64,000 bases of DNA from Ascidiella aspersa (lineage: Eukaryota), in NCBI GenBank assembly GCA_963924565.1, contig OZ004607.1:15934001-15998000 (forward strand). Direction: 5' to 3'. The notes beneath the pieces were generated by a model. That model was not told the origin of the DNA. It worked only from the letters and a program-made list of their open reading frames with translations, and did no database searches. Made by a program: the position numbers and the translations under genes. Positions 3,401-62,985 of the stretch are shown in pieces; position 1 is the stretch's first letter, and every line of letters starts with the position of its first letter.

Positions 3401-3916
3401 CATTTATTTGACCAGCAGTTCTAAGTAGGTTTTACACCCGCTATATAAAGCACTGATAGCAATAAAATATTGAAATTGATTTCATTCCATTAACTGTGAA
3501 TGTTTTCCTCTTTAGGCACAGAGCTGGCGACCAAGTCTGGAAAACCCATATAATGGTGTTGTGACCTGGTCAGGACACAATCAGGAAGCTCTTGAAATAC
3601 ATGTCACCTTTTTCAGGGAGCAATCGGGACAATCTTTTGAGCCAAAAGATTGGGTTTTTGTTTTGGAAAATGTAATTTAAGTGTTTACAATGATGTATTG
3701 ATTTTCATTATACATTCCAACTGGCTTGTTACAGGAAACTCGGAATGGCAAACGAAAACCAATAGCAACTGTTCGAATGGACATGTGTAAATATATATTG
3801 GATGTCCCATCCCCGCAACCCATTGAAGTGCAGATGAAACCTCTGAACAGAAAGCTGCTATCAGCTACTTTGAAGTTTACACTTACTTGTATATTCATGT
3901 CTGAAAAACTTGCCAC
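407..3916 (+). CDS. EHBP1: EHBP1 N-terminal C2 (NT-C2) domain, exons 1-4
   Basis: Exons 407-501, 1020-1077, 3516-3671 and 3735-3916 translate to [21 protein letters not shown]...[21 protein letters not shown], matching the EHBP1 NT-C2 pattern. Confidence 0.92.
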
Positions 3917-6900
3917 GTAAGTTGACTTGTCCTTGAGTTTATTGGCTTTTGAGCATTTCTCTGTTTTTAAGCATAACTAACTATTAATAATTATTGTATA
4001 GTGAGGCTGACTTAGCTTCAATGGCTGGCAGCACAACCAGTGAAGACACAATCCACTTGGGCGATATTGATATTGCTAATGTGCATGACTTTGATGATTC
4101 TGAAGGTAAGTTAGTAAACAGAGCTATATCCTTTGTTTTGCAATACTGTCCCTACATTATCACCAATGTAACATTGTGTGATTGTTCATGATTTTTGTTC
4201 ATGGTTATTTTTTGTCATTGCATTCTCTTTTGTTTTCTTAGTTGAAGGAAGTTCACGTGGTAGCACTTTAGATGGCCACACAACAAAAACCTCAAACAAC
4301 ATTCAGCGAGAGTTGCATGACTTGACACAACAAATAGAGTCTTTTAAATTCCCAATGAGTGATTTAGACACATCTTCACAAAAAACATCTTCTGCAGTTG
4401 ATGTCATTGACGGTTGTAGCTTCATAAAAATGTTTATTTTTTGTGAAATATATAATCATGAAGCGTTTGACAATATGCGTTGTACATAGTTTAAAAGAAA
4501 AATGCATGAATTTATAGACAATCGTTTAGTTATGTCAGTTAGGTAGACTATTAACGATGTTTTTATTTAGGCGTTTTTTTTAATTTTTTGTCGTTATTGT
4601 TTAATTTCCTATATTACAACATCACAACTTTCTTTCAAAGTGTCTAGTCAACTGAAGAGCTTTTTTCATAATTAAAAAAAAATCTGTTTTAACATCCACT
4701 GGTGACGAAAATGGTTTTCTGGTCCAACCTAAATTGTTTAAAATTAAAAATTAGTTGTTAGGGAGAGGCCACAGGCCAAATGCCTATACACATAAGGTAG
4801 TGTTTGTTTCTCCAATATCTTGAACTTTGTCATTTTATCGCTATAATGATTTTCTGAGGTATTATTACTTTGTGTTAAAAGGTTTTTAACACAATTTTCT
4901 TCATTATAACTTACAAAAAAACAATTTTATGTTTTATATAATTTATTAACTTCTTATTAGCTTAACAAGTGATGTATTTACATTGCTGTCCAATACACTG
5001 TTTTTAAAAGTTCAAACTCCTATTTTGGCAAATTAATGTGTTGATGCTTTAAAACTGCTGAGTTTTCTTAATTGTTTAGCTGTCAAGAACCATGCGTGAA
5101 GTACTTAACTAATTTATAACCTTTTACAGTACAAAGTGCAAAGTCAGGGAGTAGGCATACAAGTACAAGCAGTGTGCCCTCCGAGAAAACTTCTACCAGT
5201 CATGGCTCTAGTAATGACAATAAAAGGTTTGTGTCCCTTTGAAGTTTAATATTTATAGCTTCCCTTTATATGAATGATGACCTCCTTCTTTTCACTTTAA
5301 AAACAAATCTCACATAAAATCAAGATAGAGCTTAAATTTATTGAGGTATAGCATTTTATAATCTAAAAATAATACTTAAAAGGCCAAAAATTACTAATTT
5401 ATATTTCATTCACCATGCAGAAATAAAAAATGAGTTTACCGTATTTATTCTTTAGAATAGATGCTTCAACTTTGATTGTGGAAAACGATGTTCCAGATAA
5501 CATGCCTCATTCTAAAGAAAAAAGGTTAAGCCAATCATCCGAAGGTGACCAGAAACATTTAATCATTTTTTTGTGTGTAAACGGTACAATTTAAGTGTCT
5601 ACAACTGTTTCTTGACTCAAACCTATGCCTAACTAAATTTATTGGAATTTTTGCATGAATATAATGGTATATGTGTTCTCCACAAAATAACCTACATCCA
5701 TTTCCTAATGGAAGACTAGGCACTCATTGGCAGGTGTTTTTAGTGTCCACCAAAATCCATTTGTATATATGCTCAAATCCTGCACGCTTGTTTGGTTAAC
5801 CTGTCTTGCCAAATTTTGGTGTAAATATTGGTATATTGACACTGTTGTTTTCCTTTTAGTTTTTGATATTTTTCTTATTCCTTCTATTATATATTATGAT
5901 GAAGCATTTGTGCTTGCTTAGTTGTTTTGGTTAATTGCAGTGTCACATCAGGAGTTGTCCTGAGTATGTTGACAACTTGTTTATATTGCCATCATCTAGT
6001 TTTTCAGCTACCATTTTTTACAGTTTGGGCTACTTTTGATTTGTATTTATTACTTTTTGTCACCCGTTTTTATTAGTCTTTTTATGTTATGAATTCTGCA
6101 TAAATGTGCAACAAAAGTTGAATCTTGCACGAAAAATGCCACTATTTGTTTAAAATAGTTAACTTTAATTTAGATTTTAGAGGGGTATGTGAACATTGTT
6201 GGAAATATTGGGAATTTTTAAGGGTAGCATTGACCCAAAAGCTCATCATTAAAATACGTAAAACATTTGTATAAAACACTTACAATGTTTTTTTTTGCTA
6301 ATTAAAGCTTTAAACCCTAACCCAAATATAGTGCGTTATTGTAATAATTATTTGACACTGGGGAAAAAGCCCAAACTCGGGTAGGCATAAGATAACTTCT
6401 CGTCCAGGGTATATAGGATTGTTACGTCACAAATTGGTGTATTGGAACCTAAAGTTTTTATTAGTTTTTAATCTTAAGGTGCTAAATGCCAGGCAGCAAA
6501 CTCAATACAAGATCCGGAGATTAGTATCCAAAAGCAGAAAATTCTGCCTGTCTGGTTTTGTTTTTACCGTTGCAACTTTTGACTTGTGCAATTTGTGCTT
6601 TTAATTGACGTTTTACTTTCCCAGCATAGTCGCAAAGGCAATGTGCTACACACGTAACTTGAAGCTGCATGGTATTTCAGGATTGTGCTAGTGCTCACCT
6701 TACATTTTGCAGTATCAGACAGTTGCTTGTTTTATGACATGATGTTATGACATAAATATGTGTTGGCATGTCAACTCTAAAACTTTCAAAGGTGTTATGT
6801 TGCAATTTTAAGTAACATTCTATCTTGACAACCTCTTAATTTAACAACAGTCTTGTAACCCAAATGATTGTCCCAACCCACATATAATAAAGAAGGGAAC

Positions 6901-9900
6901 GCTGTTGACTCTACTATTTTGCCGTGTTTGATACTACTATATACATCTATTACAGCTTCCCATTCGTCGACTCCTAAGCTTAAACGGAGACTGCGACCTT
7001 CAGTAGACTTCTTACCCCAGTTGCAATCTGAAGAAAGTGAAAATTTACAACAGGTTTGAACTACGTATACAGAATGATATTTAACCTTTGTAGGCGAACA
7101 AACAATAAGACCTAAAAAGCAACGATGCCTAAAGCAGAAAAATCTATAATACCATAGTATTAGGCCCAAGAGCATAAAAAAACAAATACCCATATCCACG
7201 ACAGATTAAGATCTAAAATCCTCTGAATAAGACCTAAATCTGTCGGGACTCGGGATACAGCTTAAATTCATTGAAATAAAGCCAAAATAGACAAATTTAG
7301 GCCTGAAACTGCAAGGAGAGGATATGGAATGATTGGGGGCCGTCTGGCATCGATTGACAGTTTTGGTGTCAACGTTTAAGCGCCGTAGTTTTATAGACGT
7401 TGTTGGGATTTGTAACTCGATTTTTTGGCCGATTTGGGGTTAAGGGTGGAGTTACAAAATGGGTTATTAAGGGAATTTGTGATGTACTTGGGGGTTGGGT
7501 TTGTTGTTAGGTGAAATTTGTATAAGCATGATTCTGACATCTGACTGGACTTATTTCGATTTATACATTATTATGACTATAAGGTATCAGTCCTATTTTG
7601 GTCTTATTTCGAACTGTGTTTTATTGCGACAGTGATGTTGTTCTTATTTCAGTCTTTTGGCTGGAATCCCTTTGTAGGTCTTTGAAATTTTTTTTACATG
7701 TTATTAAACATTATGCATAAATATAAAATATATTTTGGGCACAGAATTAGTACCATATTGAAAATAGTAAAAAAAACAGTGTTTATATAAAAGTTTTAAA
7801 AATGTTACAACCTCATTTAGATTGATCAACCTTCATCAGTTGGAAATTCACCAGCCACAGACAATCAGAAGGCACTCCTTAGGTGGTGCCAGAGAGTTAC
7901 TGCTGGACACCAGGGAGTAAAGGTCACTAACTTTACAACGTCCTGGCGAAACGGGTTGGCACTTTGTGCCATACTTCATCACTATAAACCCGATTTAATG
8001 TAAGCTAAAATATAAATGTAATCACTGTGTTTAAAATCCTAAAATATTCATATTAAATAAATGCGCTCTATTTTTTACATCCTACGTTTATCGTGTTTTT
8101 TCCCTAAGTTTACTGGTGAAGACTCGGAGGTTACCTTACTCTGAAACTCGTTACCAAACATTTCCTTTTATTTACCTCGCATTAGTTTATACAGAACAAA
8201 ATAGATGCCTATTTATCAGCATCGTTTAGATATGGCACACTTACTAATTTACTTGTGTTATCTTATAATATTTAAAACACCCAACATTTCATGTTAAAAT
8301 TTACCGAAAATCGTTTCCGGATGTTTTTTTTTCGTGAAAAATATAATCATGAAGCGTTTGACAATATGCGTTGTACATAGTTTAAAAGACCATTTTTTTA
8401 ACATTGCGCTGAAGAAGAAAAATGCATGAAATTATAGACAATCGTTAGTTATGTCAGTTAGGTACACTTTTAACGATTTTTTTATTTAGGCGTTTTTTTA
8501 TTTTTTGTTGTTGATGTTTAATTTCCTATATTACAACATCACAACTTTCTTTCAAAGTGTCTAGTCAACTGAAGAGCTTTTTTCATAATTAAAAAAAATC
8601 TGTTGTTTTAACATCCTCTGGTGACGTAAATGGTTTTCTGGTCCAACCTAAATTGTTTAAGCTTCTCTTAAGGTGTTTTTTTAACGTTGTGCTTTTGCAG
8701 AGACTATACAAACTTGAAATCGTTAGATGGGAAGCAGAATATAAAAAAGGTAAATATGTTCGGATTAGGCAAGGTATTGTTTTTATGTTTAACGTGCTGA
8801 AATATACATGCATACACAACACATCCGTTAACAACAACTGAAATCTAGCACTACAGGAGTCGCCCTTTTATTCCCCTTTTTAACGATAACTGCACATATC
8901 ATAGTTTTGAAGACTAACCGAATCAGTCGTTCCTTAAAAAAATTAGTGCAAGCAAGGCAGAGGCGTAGCGAGGGTATTTTGCGCCCGGGGGCAAACTTTA
9001 AATTTGGCGTCCCCTCCTCCATGTTCAATCACATTTTTTTATTGAATTAACATATTATACCGTACTTTATACGGAAACAGTTAAGAAGCGTTTTAGTTAT
9101 ACAAACTACACGTATGACTCACCTAGTCACTGTCAAACATGAATGATTAACAACTATAGATTATTTTTCACGTCATCGAAATCTGTTGTTTCCAATGTTT
9201 CTCTTTCAACTCTAAGAATAGCAAAATCTTTGAGACGATCCTGTCCCATTGATGCACGGCGTTGCGCGCAGATACGACAAAATAAGTTTCAATTTGCTGA
9301 ACGACCACTCACAACTTGCAATTGAAACTGCTATTGTTAGCAGAATTTGTAGTGAACATCGCATATTTGGAAATACGTCATCATCATAAAACACAATAAA
9401 ACCAACAAACTCTAAAGGAGTTCGGTTACTGAGCAGCATTCGGCAATCACCAATTTCAATGAAAAGATCGTTGTCATTGATGTTCGTGTCGTAGAAATTT
9501 GCAAAATCTGCACAATTTCGACGCATTGCATCCTCATCTGTGTCAGATAGAAGAGTCTTAACGTCCAACAAATATCCAAATTTATTGTTCAGGTCTTTTA
9601 GTCGTGAAAAAACGTGTTGACATCTCATATTGAAGCCTATGAAATACATTCTTCATAACGCGCAGAATTTCTTCTTCAGCTCAATCCCCAGATTGAGTAT
9701 TTTGTTTTGGCCTTTTTTACAGCAGCTTGGCTCAAACCATCACGAAATGAGTCTTGGCTTTTATAGTGATTTTAATGGTTTAGTTTGGTGTTCATTTTGT
9801 TTTTTATGATGTCCTATACTTTACATTAAAATTGCACGTGTAGGTGACTGAAGACATAGTTCATGGATTTGCGATTTGCGAACTTCGCTACTAATTTTTA

Positions 9901-12900: not shown

Positions 12901-15900
12901 ACTTTTACGTATAAAAATAAATCAAATCACCTTGCCCCCAATAAATTCAATTTTCAAATCTATTAACTTGAAATATGTGTGAATTATAGAGTTGAATATA
13001 ACGGACTCTGACTACAGTTCAGCAATTAGCTGTTATTAACGTATTTAGTTGTTATTAACAATTTGCTGTTCGTAATTTAAAACCGGCTATTAACACAAAA
13101 TAACTTTAACTGGTACTTATATAAGTTACGACGATTAACGAATATAGTGTTTCTTTACATCTGTTTAATTTAACTTCTACGTGGACTTACGATTGATGAT
13201 TTAAGAATGCTGTTTTGAGAAATACACTTTAAAAGAACAAAAAAGTTCATACACGGCTTACCAGTTAAAACTTGTGGCATTCGCCCGATCTATTGAGCCT
13301 CTGGCCCGATATAACCCTGGCGCTAGTTATCCAACGCAAAATTCGTTAAACCCAACACAGTTAATAAAACGTTTCCAGCGAATATTATTCGGCAGATTAA
13401 AGTGTTACTATTGCTGACGCTAAATCGCGGTGTGCAAAAAAATTAGGCTTCGTTTGTTTCTGTGAAAGGAGTATATCGAAGAAATATATTACTATAATAT
13501 ACTAAAACAACTGTTTAAATGACTAAGTAAACGGTTTCCTTTAGCGCACTTGGCTCAGAATCAGACGTATGACTATTTTTTATAGCGAAATAGATCCCAA
13601 GCCAGTTCAAAATCAAAATGATTTTGCAATGATGGTGCATCATTCGCGGTGCAGATTACTTCAACATTTTTATTTTAGTTATGTTTCCTAAATTGCGAAA
13701 TTAAACTGATTGAGTGGGTACAGCTACGCGCTTTAGGAGGTACTCACTGCTTTGCCCTTTCATTAAACCAGATCGTTTTCATATGCAGAAAGCATCCGCT
13801 GAACGAAGTAAAAAGACGAAGACGATGGAACTTATAGAGAAAGCAAAGGCTGATGCGTTGGCTTCTGCACAGGTTACAGACCTTTTTTTTTCTTTTTCCC
13901 AAAGTTTTACTAGACTATCCCGCCATTTTTTAAATGGCAGCTTATTGCGACACGCCCAGTCAGGCTTACCTTCAGCCACGCCTGATAGGGTTGTTGAGAT
14001 TTTGAAATTTTTAAAAAGTTTAGCTAATCGAAGTTTTTCCCATGGTTTGGACCTTAAAAATAGGATTGACGAAAAAAAATTTAAATTTGGGTCATGATTT
14101 CGCCCTCCTCAAAGCCCCCAAAGTTTAGCAGTTAAAATCATCAAAATATGGGAATTCCCCTATTACGAAAACTTGCTAAATTTGCTCTATTGTTACCAAA
14201 CGGTGGCAAATAGTATTGTAAAATGTTATTTGTAATACATCAACAACAAATACACATATTTAACACAAAGGAGCATTGAAAATTAGCTAAAAAAACTTTT
14301 TTTGCAACGATTGTATTTTTTAAAGTCTGGAAACTATCGCCGGTGTTCTTCTACGACTTGCAGGAGGCTAGCATGCTGCTGTGCATCATCAGTGATGTTT
14401 GCTGAATAATCAGTATTTACCTTGACCATTCTCTCAGCAGCATCATAACAACTTGACAGTATTTACAAAATTTTCTGCAACTTGGTAGTCTTTATCTTGC
14501 GGCCAGTCACAAACTGGAAGCCTCAGCCAGTTGCACTGAATGTCAAGAGATAAAAAAAGAAACCAGGACTCCTAGCCGACTAAATTTTCAATTCTGGTGC
14601 ATCCTGTTTCTTTTGAACGCATTACTGGCAACTCCAGGGGAAATTTACTTGGGTATTGATTGGGTGTATCTAAAGTTTTTCTTGCCAATGCCGATTTCCT
14701 ATCTTCGTCCATAGTAGGGTGAGAACTGAACATAGAAAACAATACAGTTTCTGCATTTATGTACCAATGATCAACTTTAGCAGCTTGTTGTAGGCAACCT
14801 ACTGAATACTCTTTCATAGTTTGACAGCCAAAACGTCAGGTATTTATTAAAGATTCGGAACCAATACCTGTTTTTACCTAAGCTGAAACATAAAACAAGG
14901 CAATAAACTGGTTGATGCGCTGCCGGTGGTTTACAAAATCTTGTTCGTAGCCCATATGTTACATCCACATGAACATTGTTTGGCAGTATAGGACCTGGCT
15001 CATCCATCGAGCACTGCATGTAGCACCAGGTTTGCCAAACAATGTTCATGTGGATGTAACAGATAGGCTACGAACTATATTTTGTAAACCACCGGCAGCG
15101 CAACAACCAGTTTATTGCCTTGTTTTATGTTTCAGCTTGGTAAAAACAGGTATTGGTTCCAAATCTTTAAAAAATACCTGACAATTTACAAACCATGAAA
15201 GAGTGTTCAAAATATGACAACCAGGTGGCATAGGTTGCCTACAACAAGCTGCTGAAGTTCATCATTGGTACATAAATAAAGAAACTGTATTGTTTTCTAT
15301 GTTCAGTTAACACCCTACTATGGACGAAGATAGGAAAGCGGCATTGGCAAGAAAAGTTTGGATACATCCAATAGCCAAGTAAAGTTTCCCTGGACTTGCC
15401 AGTGATGCGTTCAAAAGAGCACCACAATTGAAAATTCAGTCGGCTAGGTGTCCTGGTTTCTTTTTTCCCCCTAAACGAAGCAACTGGCCGCAAGATAAAG
15501 ACTACCAAGTTGCAGAACATTTTGTAAATACTGTCAAGTTGTTATGATGCTGCTGAGAGAATGGTCAAGTTAAACACTGATTACCCAGCAAACATCACTG
15601 ATGATGCACGGCAGCATGCTAGCCTCCTGCAAGTCGTAGAAGAACACCGGCGATAGTTTCCAGAATTTAAAAAAACAATCGTTGCAAAAAAATATTTTTT
15701 AGCTAATTTTCAATGCTTCTTTGTGTTGAATATGTGTATTTGTTGTTGATGTATTACAAATAACATTTTACAATACTATTTGCCACCGTTTAGTAACAAT
15801 AGAGCCAATTTAGCAAGTTTTCGTAATAGGGGAATTCCCATATTTCGATGATTTAACTGCTAAACTTTGGGGGCTTTGAGGAGGGCGAAATCATAACCCA

Positions 15901-18900
15901 AATTTAAAATTTTTTCGGTCAATCCTATTTTTAAGGTCCAAACCATGGGAAAAACTTCGTTTAGCTAAACTTTTCAAAAAATTTCAAAATCTGAACAACC
16001 CTGTCGCCTGACGACAGGGTTCTGTATTTGATCGGTGAAGTTTTACTTCCGGTCGAAGTTAAGTTTACTACAGGTCGAAATGTTTTACTACAGGTCGCAA
16101 TTTTTTTAGTGGCATCCTGTCAGGGCGATGCATATAAGGTATACGTTTGCGTTTCGATTTATGATCGAAATCGCACGCTATTCGACTCGCAAAGCCAACA
16201 TCTTTCCGCGTGGCTGCCGCCGTGACCTTGGAGTGCCCTCTGTAATCCCGTACTTTATTGGAGGGCTGGGGCCCGTTGATATGTGTCCTGCACTGGTTTG
16301 TTGGACAGAGATGTCTTGACAGCACGTCCGGCTGACCACTTGGCCGCGGATTCGGTTTCACTTAATGCTCTCCTAACTAGTTTGTTTTTGTAGCGCGTTA
16401 ATTTGCCACTTTATCAGTTAAAGCGTGACACACGGGCAGGCGCCAAGAGAGTCCAGTGATCACCCCGTTAATGCACGTTTAGTATTGCGATAACTTTTCT
16501 TTACTTCACCAACGAAACGAAGTCGAATTCTCCTCCAATCAGAGTCGATGCAGTTCAAATAACCTCGTGTCCACACGGAGTCAAGCTGCTATGTACTCTG
16601 CCACGGTCATTGATCTAATCCTATTACTGAGAGTTCACGAACTCTTACCTGTCACTCATTCACATTGGCAAGGGGTCTCGGGGTTGCCTGCCTTACTTGT
16701 GACGTCAACGTGGTTAAGGCTGATCAAAGTTTCCTATTACCAGCGGTCTATAAGTTATTTTTGGTCTGTCTACAACTTTGCAACTTGAACTGAATCGCAA
16801 AGGTTTGTTTGTGTTTAGTAGTATTGCCGTCAGTGAAACACTTTCTCACGGTATTTTGTTGTTGTGCTATTCGCGGTCACCCAGTAAATACCTGTAGAAT
16901 ATCGTTAACTAAATGTGTTGTAGCACTTGTTTCTTGTTTGTTGCAGAGCCCCAAGCGGGAAGTAAGCGAACGAGCTCAGAAGTTGATTGACGAAGCTCGC
17001 GCCACATTGGGGAGAACTGACAAACCAATCAAGCAACTGCCTAAAGACGATCAAGGTAGGTCTGGTTGACAAGAACCTCCAAACACAGAGCCCATGTCTA
17101 TATTTGCGTCTGGCATTCGAGGCCACCTTTAAACAAGCACCTTCCTGTGTTTCAGGCTCGCCATCGCTCGGCGCCCAGTCATGCGCATCTGAAACGTCAA
17201 CAAAACGACATTCTACTGACGGACGCGGCGCGCCTTTCAACGGGATCGGCGCGATTCCAGCAACAGCCAAGCAGTCGGAATCGGATAGCGTTGTAAACGC
17301 GCTGGAGAACAGCAGTTCCGCTTCGCTGTCCAAAAGCAATAGCTCGAGTGGCTACGAGTCGCAAACACGTGACACCACCGACGAGAGTCTGTGCGAACAC
17401 GCCAACGGCACAATTGACGCAAACCCTCCTGTTGAGCGCCCCATCGGCGAAACAAACTTAGGCGGTGGTGAGTCCCTCAAAGGCGCCGCAGATCCAATTG
17501 ATGACGCATCCGAAATAAAATCGCGTGATCTGGAGCCAAGCGAAACCGAGGTGCCCCATGTTGGTTCTTCGCCACTACTCAGCTACCATCCCCTGCAGTC
17601 ACCGCTTCACGAAATCGTGTCACCTCTCAACCCATTTCTTGCAGAAGACAGTGATAAGATTCATGTGGCAGATGGAGAAGGCAAAGGTATAGTTTCGCCC
17701 TAAAGCAAATGCAAAAAATCCTATTTTTACATTTAATACAGCATCATTTTCAGGTTTCGTGATGAATGTTGATATTGTTTCCGATGATCTTGATTTGCGA
17801 AGTTCCGAAAGTAATGTCACCCCGTCACTTCAAGGTTGCTATAATTAAAATGTGGATTACTTTACTAATCATTATTTTAGTTATAAACTGTTCTTTGGCA
17901 TTGCTATGTATTTATCTATATCAGGGGTCGGCAACCTTTTTCTAGTTGCGGGCCCAAACCAAACTCAGAAAGGTCTCTGTGGGCCGCACAAAATGTTAAC
18001 TAAGAATTGTGTTATTTTCATGTTAGAACACCTAGGAATCAGGCGGGACTGGGATATTTTTTGCTCATAAAAACGTGTTTATTACATTTACAGAGGCAAT
18101 AAAGTGTTGACGCAAAGGGCGAAAAAAACGTTTGTTTGGTTACAAATTTGAGTCCACATGTTCTTCATCCATACTACTAATGAAAAGTGTAATAAAACTA
18201 CCTTGATGAATCGCGGTAACATTTAAAGTTAATCTAGCTGTGTTTGTTGTTAACCGTTAGTCGAGGCCCACCTGGCGAGCGAAGCGAGCGCGAATTTTTT
18301 GGGGTATACCGGTATTTATTTTAATTTATTGAAGTTTTTATTACATTGCCGAAAATAAAAAATAAAAAATGTTAAAAAATATATGTCCAATATTTTTTAA
18401 TATGTTTTCCGTGACGCACTGGTCAGTCTTCCACGGCGCAACGGTAAAGAACCGCTGATCTAGTTGAAAAGGCAGAATTAAAACGTAAACAAACCGGACG
18501 TAGGATAAACATTCGCGCGAAGCGCGAAGATTTTTTGCAATTACGTGGTTAAAATAATCAAAACGTTTGTGAAATAGACTCATGTCTAATTTGTCAAAGA
18601 GGCGGCGGGCCGGATGAATTACATCGGCGGACCGGATCTGGCCCGCGGGCCGTAGGTTGCCGACCCCTGATCTATAGTATATACTACCTATATTGCTTAG
18701 CAAGCACCCTACTTTTTTTTAATCGTCCAATAATTTGTTCTATATCAACTGCCATAGCACAGCTTTTGTAAAAACCACACGTGGCAAACAATGGTCGCAC
18801 CCCTGCTCATGTTAGCCTTGTACACCTTAAATGCAACCGTGCCCTTATTGGTAAAGTATAGCAATCACGCCTAACAATTATAATAATTTTAAGATAAAAA

Positions 18901-57400: not shown

Positions 57401-60400
57401 GAAGCACGGAAGTCGCCAGCTCTTGACGGTAAAGTAGAAAGAGACAGTGATGGTAAAGAAGTGAGATTTCCAGTGATCCTTTCAGCAAAGGAGAAGTTAA
57501 TTGCTAGACAAGTTTGCCTTGCATTTAAGGTGTGCAATGTTCCTCATGATTTTCCCTTAATTATTTTTTTCTTTTTTGAAGTTTAAATTTTGTATTTGCA
57601 GCAAACTGTTTGTGGATTTGATTTTTTGAGAGCACATGGAAAGTCTTTTGTATGTGATGTTAATGGATTTAGCTTTGTTAAGAATTCCATGAAATATTAT
57701 GATGACTGTGCTAAAGTTTTAGGGTGAGAACCATTTTTTTCGCTTAGATTAGTGGTTCCCAACCAGTTTAGTTCTGTTTACCCATCTAGTCGATATTCAA
57801 ATCTAATTCCCCCTACGAATTTGTTTTGCTAAATATCGTTAACATTAATATTTTCATGTAATTCTTAGAACAGAACTTAAACCCTCGATTATAAGCTGTA
57901 AAGCCTCTATACAAGAACTTTATTTTTCTAACATAGCACATAGCACAGATCCCCCCCCCCTTCGTTGGGAACCACTGCCTTAGAGCACCCGACAAAGATT
58001 ATGAAAGTTTTACACAAGTTATTTTGAGTCTAACTATTACATTTGTTGTGCAGAAATATTATCATGAGAGACTTGGCACCTCAATTTTTAATTCCTTGGC
58101 AAATTTCATCAGATACTGAAGACATTCCAATTGTCCCAACAACTTCAGGAACTATGTAAAAATCATGCATACCAATATATTTTATCAGGATTTGATCAAA
58201 ATGAGTTTTCTTGTTTAACATTTTTAGGATGGAATTGAGGTGTGTAATTGCTGTTATTCGCCATGGTGACCGTACGCCAAAACAAAAAATGAAAATGGAA
58301 GTAAGGCATCAAAAGTAAGAAAGCATTTTTATTTACATGTTTTGTCATCTATAGGTGTTATGTTGATTGTAGTCTTTATTCAATTTTATGTTTTTTAGGA
58401 GAAATTAACCCTACTGTTTTATATTCTTAGCCTATATACTGTAGTGAATATATGTAGATAAAAAAGTGAAAAACAAGCTTATACAGCAAGGGTGGCCAAA
58501 ACCACAGAAAGGTCTTTGCAAGCCGAACTGTATAGACTTTACACATCTTGTTATAACAACCACCACTACTGTTAATTAGGGATAACTCTAGGACTAGGGT
58601 TTCTGAGCCTGCATAGCTCAGTTGGTAGAGCGACGGTCCCGGCTTGACCGGAGGTCGTGAGTTCGAACCTCACTGCAGGCTAGTTGTTTTTCTAGTCTGC
58701 TCTGCTTGCATCATAGATCAACAGATTCGGTGAGTCTGCGATGGCTTTCGGTGTACTAATTATACGTAAGCCGTAGTCGTTGGTCAAAAAGCAGCTTCGA
58801 AGGGCTAGATCTCAGTTATTAACACACATATGTGTGAATGTTTCATTGAATAAATGATATGGTACTGTGGATCCCCTTCTATGAGGTTGCTTGTACTAAC
58901 AGATTGAGCAAGCATTGGCGCATGGTTGTTTTCTCGACTTGCTCCCTTCTGAGCCTGCATAGCTCAGTTGGTAGAGCGACGGTCCCGGCTTGACCGGAGG
59001 TCGTGAGTTCGAAACTCACTGCAGGCTAGTTGTTTTTCTAGTCTGCTCTGCTTGCATCATAGATCAACAGATTCGGTGAGTCTGCGATGGCTTGCATTGT
59101 ACTAATTATACGTAAGCCGTAGTCGTTGGTCAAAAAGCAGCTTCGAAGGGCTAGATCTCAGTTATTAACACACATATGTGTTAATGTTTCATTGAATATG
59201 ACTAGGGTATGCTATTTTTCAGGGGTCTAACTACTTGTACCTTCGTTGCAGGAACAAGATTTTCACAAAGCAGCAAATAATTTGCTTTTACTTAGTTGAA
59301 GAGGCCAGAAAATATGAAATGGCCTTGTGCCCAGTTTGCAAAATAGGTCACAGGCCGCATGATTTGCATTGGCGGACTGGATCTGGCCCACGGGCCGTTT
59401 GTTGCCCACCTCTGTTTAACAGTATAATTGAATATTGTGTCGCTAAACTTAAATATCAATATTTTTATTTTTAGGTTTTTCGATCTTTTCACAAAATACA
59501 ATGGTCATAAAACTGGAAAATTAAAGTTAAAACGTCCCAAACAGCTGCAGGAGGTTTTGGATGTGGCAAGATGTCTACTTGCTGAACCTGAAACCATTGT
59601 TCAAGAGAAACTACACAAACTTGAGCAACTGAAAAATGTTTTGGAAATGTAAATAAATGATTTTTTTGGTTTGTCTATCCTTTGTTAAACTATCCACACC
59701 CGGGGCATCAGACATGCTGCCGTGCATGACCATTTCAGGCGGCTTTTTTTTAAACCGCTTAAGTTTTTTGCAAGTCTTGTGCAAATGAAGCTGTTTCAGT
59801 TTTAGGCTGGTATTCTGTAAAATGTGTGAAAAATTTTCAACACGCCAATACTTAAATTTGGCAATTTAAACCTAAATGTTTTCTATAAACTTGGTTAGTT
59901 GGCCTGTTGTAGATTGAGGAATTAGGTCTAAACAAGGTGCCCCATTGCCGCCATTCACACACATGTGGCCAGCCAAAAAAGTGTTCACAGCATGTTACTG
60001 TCTACCACCCAGCTAAGAGAAGAAGAAGAAGATTGAATATGTATGCTTATCTATTGTAAATTAAGCGTAGGGCAGATGAATAAATTTAATTGATTGAAAA
60101 ACGATTTTTTTTCTACATTCTGTTGTTGCAGCCAGCTCACATATTCAAATGACTTCATGTGTTAGTAAGAATTAAGTTTGACACCCCTATTCTACATAAC
60201 TGTGTTGTATAGCTGTTAAGATTTTATAGATACATATTGTCTATTTCATAAATGTAGGTATGGCCATTTTTCTGGAATAAATCGAAAAGTTCAATTCAAA
60301 TACATGTCATCTCGCAATATGACATCAAGTTCAGAAGATGGTGAGTGTACTAATATTTAAAAGGAAATAAGTATTATACTGTTTTATAGCAACTAATTTC

Positions 60401-61949: not shown

Positions 61950-62985
61950 TTGTAATTGTTAACCAATGTTTCGGCAACCTGTTCAAATTGCCTTCTTTAG
62001 GGTGAATAACACTGAACGCTTGTAGTACAATATATGGAAAAAAAACAATGGAAGAAAAAACGCGAGGAACAACATATTAAAACAAAATGCAAAAACTAAT
62101 ATCAACTAAAGTAGGTGTTTGTAGCATGCTAAGAGCTTCATATCTGTTTTGATGTTCATGGTGTTACACTTCTTGTGAATGTTCCAACATTCCAGAAATA
62201 ATATTTTTCCATAGTCTAACTATCGTGGCATTATAGAGCCTGCACCAAAATTAATTGAAGAGCCTTGGGAGGTTTTGTATGGTTCGAAAGGGCAGACTTT
62301 TTTGCGCCATTCTTCGCAACATTCCTTTGGTGTTATTTTCTGCAATCTTAAACAACCTTCCGATATACACCAAACTACAATCTGCACAGGGGATAGAATA
62401 TGCAATCCTTGTTGGTCAAAGAAAATTATGTGGTCTTTTGAGTGACTCTGAGGCTTGTAGAAAAGTATTGGTAGGTTGCATACCAACCGCTAAACCGAAG
62501 TCTCTCAACGCCGTAAGACTTTGATTAGTTTTAATATGCAGATTGTATTTTGATGTATATCGGGAAGACCAAAGGTCGTTAAAGAATCGTCTAAAGAACA
62601 CCAATGGGATATTGTGAAGAATGACATGAAAGTCTGCACTTTTATACCCACAATATCCCCCAAGGCTACAAATGATTCGGTACAGTATCTTTAATAACAC
62701 TAGAGTCAGACTATGGGAAAATATCATTATTGAAATCATGAAACATTCACAAGAAGGGTAACATGATGAAAATCAAAACAGATGTGATGCTCTCAGCAAG
62801 TTAAAAACACCTGCTCAAGGACTAGAGGCTATTTGTGATCGCAATTTTTTTCTTATTGTGTTGTTCCTCAAGTTTTTTCTTCCATTTTTTCCTTTGTGTT
62901 TTTCCATATATTGTATTATGAAAGGTTGGTGTCATTCACCTTGAAAGAAGGCAAACTGAATATGTTGCCGAAACGTTTGTTAACT
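61950..62985 (-). mobile_element. Penelope-like retroelement remnant (GIY-YIG endonuclease end) with an inverted pseudo-LTR
   Basis: Minus-strand translation AYSIPCADCSLVYIG...SSINF...KILFLECWNIHKKCNTMNIKTD. Segment ~61960-62225 recurs, inverted and diverged, at ~62705-62985. Confidence 0.82.

Follow-up and report, generated by a model that had tools for sequence, protein, structure and literature searches.

The 64,000-nucleotide stretch of the Ascidiella aspersa genome analysed here (contig OZ004607.1, positions 15,934,001 to 15,998,000, hereafter the window) carries a gene of the EHBP1 type, and one intron of this gene holds a palindromic transposon copy with a total size of 2018 bp (Table 1). 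Self-BLAST of the whole window gave one inverted match of 2 kb, 13984-16005. This bears out the initial annotation, which had described two arms of about 1 kb around a 47-bp gap. When the arms were aligned with each other, 888 columns were identical, with 62 substitutions and 71 gap columns (93% within-copy identity). As these arm variants are found family-wide, the palindrome is not an exact mirror produced by the assembly, again as annotated. The flanking octamers ACGCCTGA and TCGCCTGA match at 7/8 positions, in agreement with the single target-site duplication first proposed around the whole unit.

Table 1. Features of the palindromic element and of its host gene in the window.
Feature	Position	Strand	Evidence
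Left target-site duplication copy, ACGCCTGA	13978..13985	+	flank comparison
Left arm ('S' arm), representing the right (3') end of a hATm-like element, terminus TAGGGTTGTT	13986..14985	-
Broken transposase C-terminal remnant running on across the centre, matches residues 449-691 of relative P0001	14316..15033	-	tblastn
47-bp centre, not duplicated, continues the transposase sequence	14986..15032	-	between innermost paired blocks
ACCTGG, first half of 6-bp inverted repeat in the centre, candidate microhomology	14993..14998	+
CCAGGT, second half of 6-bp inverted repeat, adjoins family-wide junction 15032/15033	15026..15031	+
Right arm ('C' arm), repeats the right end seen in the S arm; transposase remnant 15033-15686	15033..16003	+
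Right target-site duplication copy, TCGCCTGA	16004..16011	+	flank comparison
Host intron, GT..AG, 3074 bp	13873..16946	+	RNA splice reads
Upstream host exon	13789..13872	+	RNA reads
Host NT-C2 exons (EHBP1/EEIG1 type)	3516..3917	+	Pfam, E 9e-5, below Pfam's cut-off
Host CH-domain exon	7821..8000	+	Pfam, E 7e-14

Both arms contain the same transposon end and the same remnant of a transposase C-terminus, a claim of the initial annotation that was upheld by tblastn with a full-length relative, P0001, and by alignment to the ends of a sister family described below. The minus-strand remnant matched P0001 with an E value of 2e-43 and the plus-strand remnant matched residues 465-694 with an E value of 5e-15. 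The remnant is 35% identical to P0001, and a Pfam scan of four remnant pieces matched no family. The 47-bp centre extends the minus-strand transposase reading of the left arm and is not foreign DNA. Regarding the label 'fold-back/MITE' (miniature inverted-repeat transposable element), the long terminal inverted repeats of a foldback element are present, about 1 kb each. The tandem repeats typical of foldback elements are absent, as no direct-repeat family of at least 20 nt was detected inside one arm, and 2018 bp in tens of copies does not agree with a short (below about 600-800 bp), high-copy MITE. A foldback element has reportedly been found in Ciona.

To place the copy in its genomic context, the genome (308.6 Mb, 75 contigs) was searched. 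The right arm gave at least 75 matches with 40 of 132 candidates scored, many of them as inverted pairs, and a 22-base terminal pattern matched 77 times, compared with 0 for the reversed control. The same central junction is common to at least 13 elements on 7 large contigs. These form four subfamilies that are about 85-96% identical, and the closest sibling of the window copy shows 96.3% identity in each arm. Among 18 tabulated two-ended copies, 14 are flanked by 8-bp duplications with at most one mismatch, all different, one has a 10-bp duplication matching at 9/10 positions, and three old copies were unmatched as cut. The copy with the 10-bp duplication (L006:140-2487) also carries an insertion of about 350 bp near its centre. 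In the alignment, a segment of about 21 bp is missing from 13/13 S arms and kept in 12/12 C arms that cover the site. Because of the shared junction, the separate duplications and the common S-arm deletion, the 2-kb palindrome has a single origin and moved as one unit, and the proposal of transposition as a unit thus stands. The idea that the element was 'caught in the making' does not: the family is old, the closest sibling is 3.7% apart and an older palindrome preceded the 2-kb form.

The same data bear on two simpler explanations. One is that every palindrome originated on its own at its present site, when two insertions lay side by side or the locus was rearranged; in favour of this, arms within a copy are on average more alike than arms across subfamilies. 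However, 13 copies with one junction, one shared S-arm deletion and one target duplication per whole unit speak against separate formation, which the shared junction contradicts, and we regard it as very improbable. A mirror read in the assembly deserves still less credence. No spanning long read was contained in the data used, but the arm differences are inherited, family-wide variants, the copies lie on 7 contigs, and independent contigs span a junction and the centre. In detail, unassembled contigs of a second sample span the left junction with no difference seen, and one contig of another study bridges the centre. The multi-copy state of the family is also visible in reads and contigs from other samples; run X1, possibly the source of the assembly, was not counted as independent.

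The nature of the two ends was resolved by comparison to conventional elements of a sister family. Both window ends align with the right-end subterminal sequence of these elements and not with the left-end sequence, which confirms the two right ends of the initial annotation. A near-intact, hATm-like sister transposase (L052:1622-5060, G000:C4 near 17.765 Mb) has a 411-codon open stretch with few breaks, and 42 database relatives were found for it. Among these relatives the WD, FDT and CxxH columns are conserved, as are D250, D317 and C346/H349; it was the relatives, and not the broken window remnant, that were tested. A predicted model of P0001 (mean predicted local distance difference test score, pLDDT, of 78.6) retrieved Hermes in all of the top 10 Foldseek rows, with a best E value of 7e-7, and by this model P0001 shares the Hermes fold; a PDB sequence search with P0001 gave nothing significant. 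Target duplications are 8 bp long in the window family, and both lengths were counted among the sister elements (9 bp in 11 pairs, 8 bp in 12). Judged by sequence, such mixed 8/9-bp duplications together with TAGGGT termini would fit hATm.

The sister family showed a recurrence of the two-right-end structure. Among 67 classified loci (a partial census, for which loci were collected by protein searches and from the terminal matches, the first 100 in a listing of 132), 34 were right-right, 5 left-right, none left-left, 17 single-ended and 11 unassigned. The right-right derivative measures about 2.39 kb and has one long arm, one short arm and a fragment of a long interspersed nuclear element (LINE) in its centre. 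L155:1921-4294 and the 33 other loci (e.g. L056, L172 and L182) are about 95% identical with mixed 8- and 9-bp duplications, and the LINE fragment, about 860 bp of 3' sequence with a reverse-transcriptase-like stretch, is present whole or partially in 34/34 loci. At L055/L210:2545-5062, the sister right end forms one more fold-back, of a different build. L134 and L192 are conventional left-right deletion copies, which together with L052 form a candidate helper lineage. In the conventional left-right copies, one normal end resembles the other at about 80% across 140 bp, and the ends are distinct beyond that. The left end was lost in the sister family independently of the window family, and the likeness of the sister's normal ends may be the reason why symmetry is tolerated here.

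These observations have to be weighed against an ordinary hATm parent with very long inverted repeats, whose normal ends would merely look like two right ends and of which the 2-kb form would be an internal deletion. Long repeats do exist in this group, as the terminal repeats of hATm-6 are given as 417 and 575 bp in the available part of its description (PMC6004678), and an asymmetric parent of the window family was not found. On the other hand, the arms hold about 650-700 bp of transposase coding sequence, the sister family's conventional copies have ends that differ beyond about 140 bp, and the older form of the palindrome turns back on itself midway through the catalytic domain, so that neither a promoter nor a 5' half would fit in. 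Such a parent therefore appears unlikely.

Older copies, about 70-75% identical to the window copy, have arms about 130-140 bp longer and a centre of about 280 bp whose reading corresponds to the middle part of the transposase. Among them, L065 differs from L053 and L066 in the type of arm found after the centre, which looks as though the latter had been flipped or converted. Shorter forms with intact duplications and central deletions measure 1436, 1169, 915 and 164 bp. Palindromic derivatives of 164-198 bp (L088:5576-5739, L103, L104 and L106) lie in a locally duplicated region of C5, 23.75-23.80 Mb; the duplication ACAGACGC is common to L088 and L103, so that at least two of these four small derivatives carry the same duplication. 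The junction of the young copies adjoins a 6-bp inverted repeat, which measures 5 bp in the older copies. TTTGGCA/TGCCAAA, considered as the native inverted repeat, was dropped, as older copies have TTGTAG before ACCTGG.

Exchange between the arms was analysed by classifying variable sites of element pairs as shared by element, by arm type or crosswise, the last class serving as homoplasy control (ratios in this order). In the case of the window copy and its closest sibling (C4a) the ratio was 0:22:0, and sites were mostly arm-inherited in 6/6 closest-sibling pairs. In the case of the window copy and an element of a different subfamily (C9a) it was 40:7:2. All six disjoint between-subfamily pairs showed more element-type sites than the homoplasy control (40:2, 38:2, 26:3, 24:0, 23:2 and 7:0), and site totals over 78 non-independent pairs were 1276:673:119. 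The sister family, which expanded in one burst, served as a control (17 of 34 copies used) and showed almost no element-type sites (74:4452:44). At the level of single alleles, the arms of the window copy have 11 in common that none of nine elements from other subfamilies carries. The S arm of the window copy has C-type alleles at 9 sites near the centre. As element-type sites far exceed the homoplasy control between subfamilies, the arms appear to have exchanged sequence; the simplest reading is that partial arm-to-arm conversion likely took place in the lineages founding each wave, with little afterwards.

Altogether, we hold it very probable that the window copy belongs to a dispersed, gene-less family of hAT type that has two right ends and moved as a unit, likely by a transposase supplied from elsewhere, with arms that likely overwrite one another through gene conversion. 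Direct observations are the structure, the one junction common to the copies, their separate target duplications, the fact that both arms are right ends, and the variants shared between arms. The course of events would be the following. Initially, the left part of a parent element would have been replaced by an inverted copy of its own right end, plausibly by repair or template switching, giving a palindrome of about 2.7 kb with a centre of about 280 bp. From this, the 2.0-kb form with its 47-bp centre would have originated once, either because a deletion removed sequence across the old centre or because a new fold-back took place at the 5-6-bp inverted microhomology; the 2-kb form may be a central deletion of the older palindrome. 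It would then have been amplified in several waves, with breaks in one arm likely repaired from the opposite arm in the lineages founding them, and more central deletions would have led to the 1.4-, 1.2-, 0.9- and 0.16-0.2-kb forms.

Several points weigh against parts of this account. Firstly, the C-terminal dimerisation domain PF05699 was unmatched in 4/4 related transposases (E values up to 1), and the termini of the window family, TAGGGTT, agree with the hATm consensus 5'-TAGGGTG at 6/7 positions, although the published list, in its accessible part, has other deviants as well (PMC6004678). Secondly, the fetched loci included neither a conventional parent of the window family nor its left end, and therefore the mobilising transposase of the family was not found. 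Specifically, a matching upstream terminus was absent from 21 single-ended loci, none of 16 odd termini was backed by N-terminal transposase sequence, and in a protein search with the middle part of the sister transposase (28 matches), 0 of 20 fetched loci joined a 5' half to a window-type arm. Thirdly, inverted repeats like the one at the junction are expected by chance at 3% of positions (6 bp) or 9.7% (5 bp), and the microhomology model fits the junction only with an extra loss of 6 bp. Deletion across the old centre and fresh fold-back predict an identical product and both need this further loss, and at a chance level of 3-10% the repeat gives the microhomology step weak support. Trees grouped all young arms in one clade with the old arms apart, and they fit deletion plus conversion and fresh fold-back alike. 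Finally, the genome searches scored part of the candidates, copy counts being lower bounds, and an empty allele was not seen in the runs and contigs examined, where contigs show presence only.

A broader interpretation is tentative, and we consider it possible but doubtful: that this hAT lineage dropped the left/right asymmetry on which Hermes depends, with the right end alone preferred, recurrent fold-backs out-multiplying their parents, symmetry maintained by arm repair tied to transposition and a final shrinkage to palindromic MITEs. If true, it would be a way in which hATm elements generally acquire long perfect terminal repeats, and host introns would be seeded with ready-made transposase hairpins. 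The single intron copy is ordinary on its own. What gives the system its value is a near-intact sister transposase together with left-right and right-right substrates in one genome, a mobile palindrome whose arm-to-arm conversion comes with an internal control, and a range of sizes, 2.7 kb down to 164 bp, relevant to the beginnings of palindromic MITEs.

Regarding the host gene, the 'EHBP1-type' label is carried by the NT-C2 and CH domains, because the five downstream open reading frames (ORFs) scanned gave no match to the C-terminal EHBP1 domain. Four RNA reads with two start points splice in frame across the intron, as expected from the annotated transcription through the element, which begins 113 bp past the donor and stops 943 bp short of the acceptor. 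For the central 1.4 kb a fold of -1004.5 kcal/mol was predicted, in keeping with the long pre-mRNA hairpin that had been anticipated; the duplex of the arms, a predicted hairpin of about 1 kb, comprises 16 perfect runs of at least 21 bp (560 bp altogether, the longest 63). The strength of this fold follows from the palindrome structure and says nothing of its use. In run X10, from an unmatched individual with no matched DNA, 43 RNA reads covered 3.9 kb with A>G at 5/31 changed places, and most of those over the element carried variants of other copies.

The intron copy is likely a tolerated passenger. The suggestion that it acts as a host-driven 'killer' locus, its hairpin being cut into small interfering RNAs (siRNAs) against the family or edited by ADAR, can draw on the transcribed and spliced intron with inverted transposon sequence inside the transcript, on the strong predicted fold with its long perfect runs, and on inverted Ac duplications, which by the accessible portion of the report yield siRNAs and silence Ac (10.1101/2020.01.07.897926). 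However, the copy is decayed like its siblings with no extra arm conservation (within-copy identity of 93%, compared to 80-94% in siblings), an intact target transposase of the window family was not found, and resemblance to the sister transposase at the DNA level amounts to only about 67-71% and is confined to short pieces. We therefore judge such a role to be improbable.

Further repeats were noted apart from the family. Another intron of the same host gene contains, on the minus strand at 9212-9652 of the window, a separate hAT remnant that matches PF05699 (E 2e-5). A second, more decayed inverted repeat with arms of about 450 bp, 74% alike, occupies 61958-62984, and direct repeats were seen at 58601-58852 and 58947-59198 (252 bp, 98%) and at 4430-4741 and 8321-8660 (about 340 bp, 86%). 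A 799-bp element at L051:4458-5256 belongs to another TAGGG-ended family and has an 8-bp duplication (7/8). On window positions 13500-16600, run X7 of a differently labelled organism (organism C) showed the exon and the intron flank as orthologues, and at the ends of the family the summed depth was far higher.

In the literature searched, neither this ascidian element nor any natural hAT family with two right ends was found reported, coverage being thin for subscription journals and Repbase Reports. Mu killer is an inverted duplication of transposon sequence within a transcribed unit, a single locus with measured siRNAs. Similarly, the silencing Ac composite insertions are inverted transposon duplications within a transcribed unit (10.1101/2020.01.07.897926); they are single loci with measured siRNAs, whereas the window element is a mobile multi-copy family known from its sequence.

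The architecture itself is already known from Galileo. In the excerpts available, copies with extended terminal repeats are described as '2RT' in D. mojavensis (PMC3573991) and as copy 147 in D. willistoni (PMC4168063). Like the window copy, these are non-autonomous, about 2 kb long, and have terminal repeats of more than 1 kb that resulted from copying the inner sequence of one end to the other; copy 147 holds more than 500 bp from the ORF's last part in both repeats (PMC4168063), and repair from the opposite repeat was proposed (PMC3573991). Differences are that Galileo belongs to the P superfamily and the window family to hAT, ORF recruitment having been called unique to Galileo by its authors, and that Galileo of D. 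mojavensis mostly duplicates the 5' region, whereas the window and sister families always duplicate the 3' end. Moreover, whole right-right families were amplified here and conversion was counted site by site. The present case thus goes beyond Galileo in its hAT setting, two amplified right-right families, the lack of left-left forms and countable conversion.

As in the sections of the hATm study available (PMC6004678), duplications are 8 or 9 bp long, TAGGGT termini are followed by T/A runs, and some elements have long terminal repeats. Unlike there, the seventh base is T and not G, PF05699 is unmatched, and those sections describe no right-right fold-back family. Hermes, as far as its available description goes (PMC10368747), shares the transposase fold, predicted here for P0001, and the 8-bp duplication. 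In that work, a donor with two right ends (RE/RE) was inactive in HEK293T cells and the asymmetry of the ends was deemed important, whereas here right-right elements are the dominant mobile form. Two independent right-right families with tens of copies offer a natural test of the Hermes-derived rule that hAT transposition needs two unlike ends and, because right-right donors of Hermes do not transpose, stand as its natural exception.

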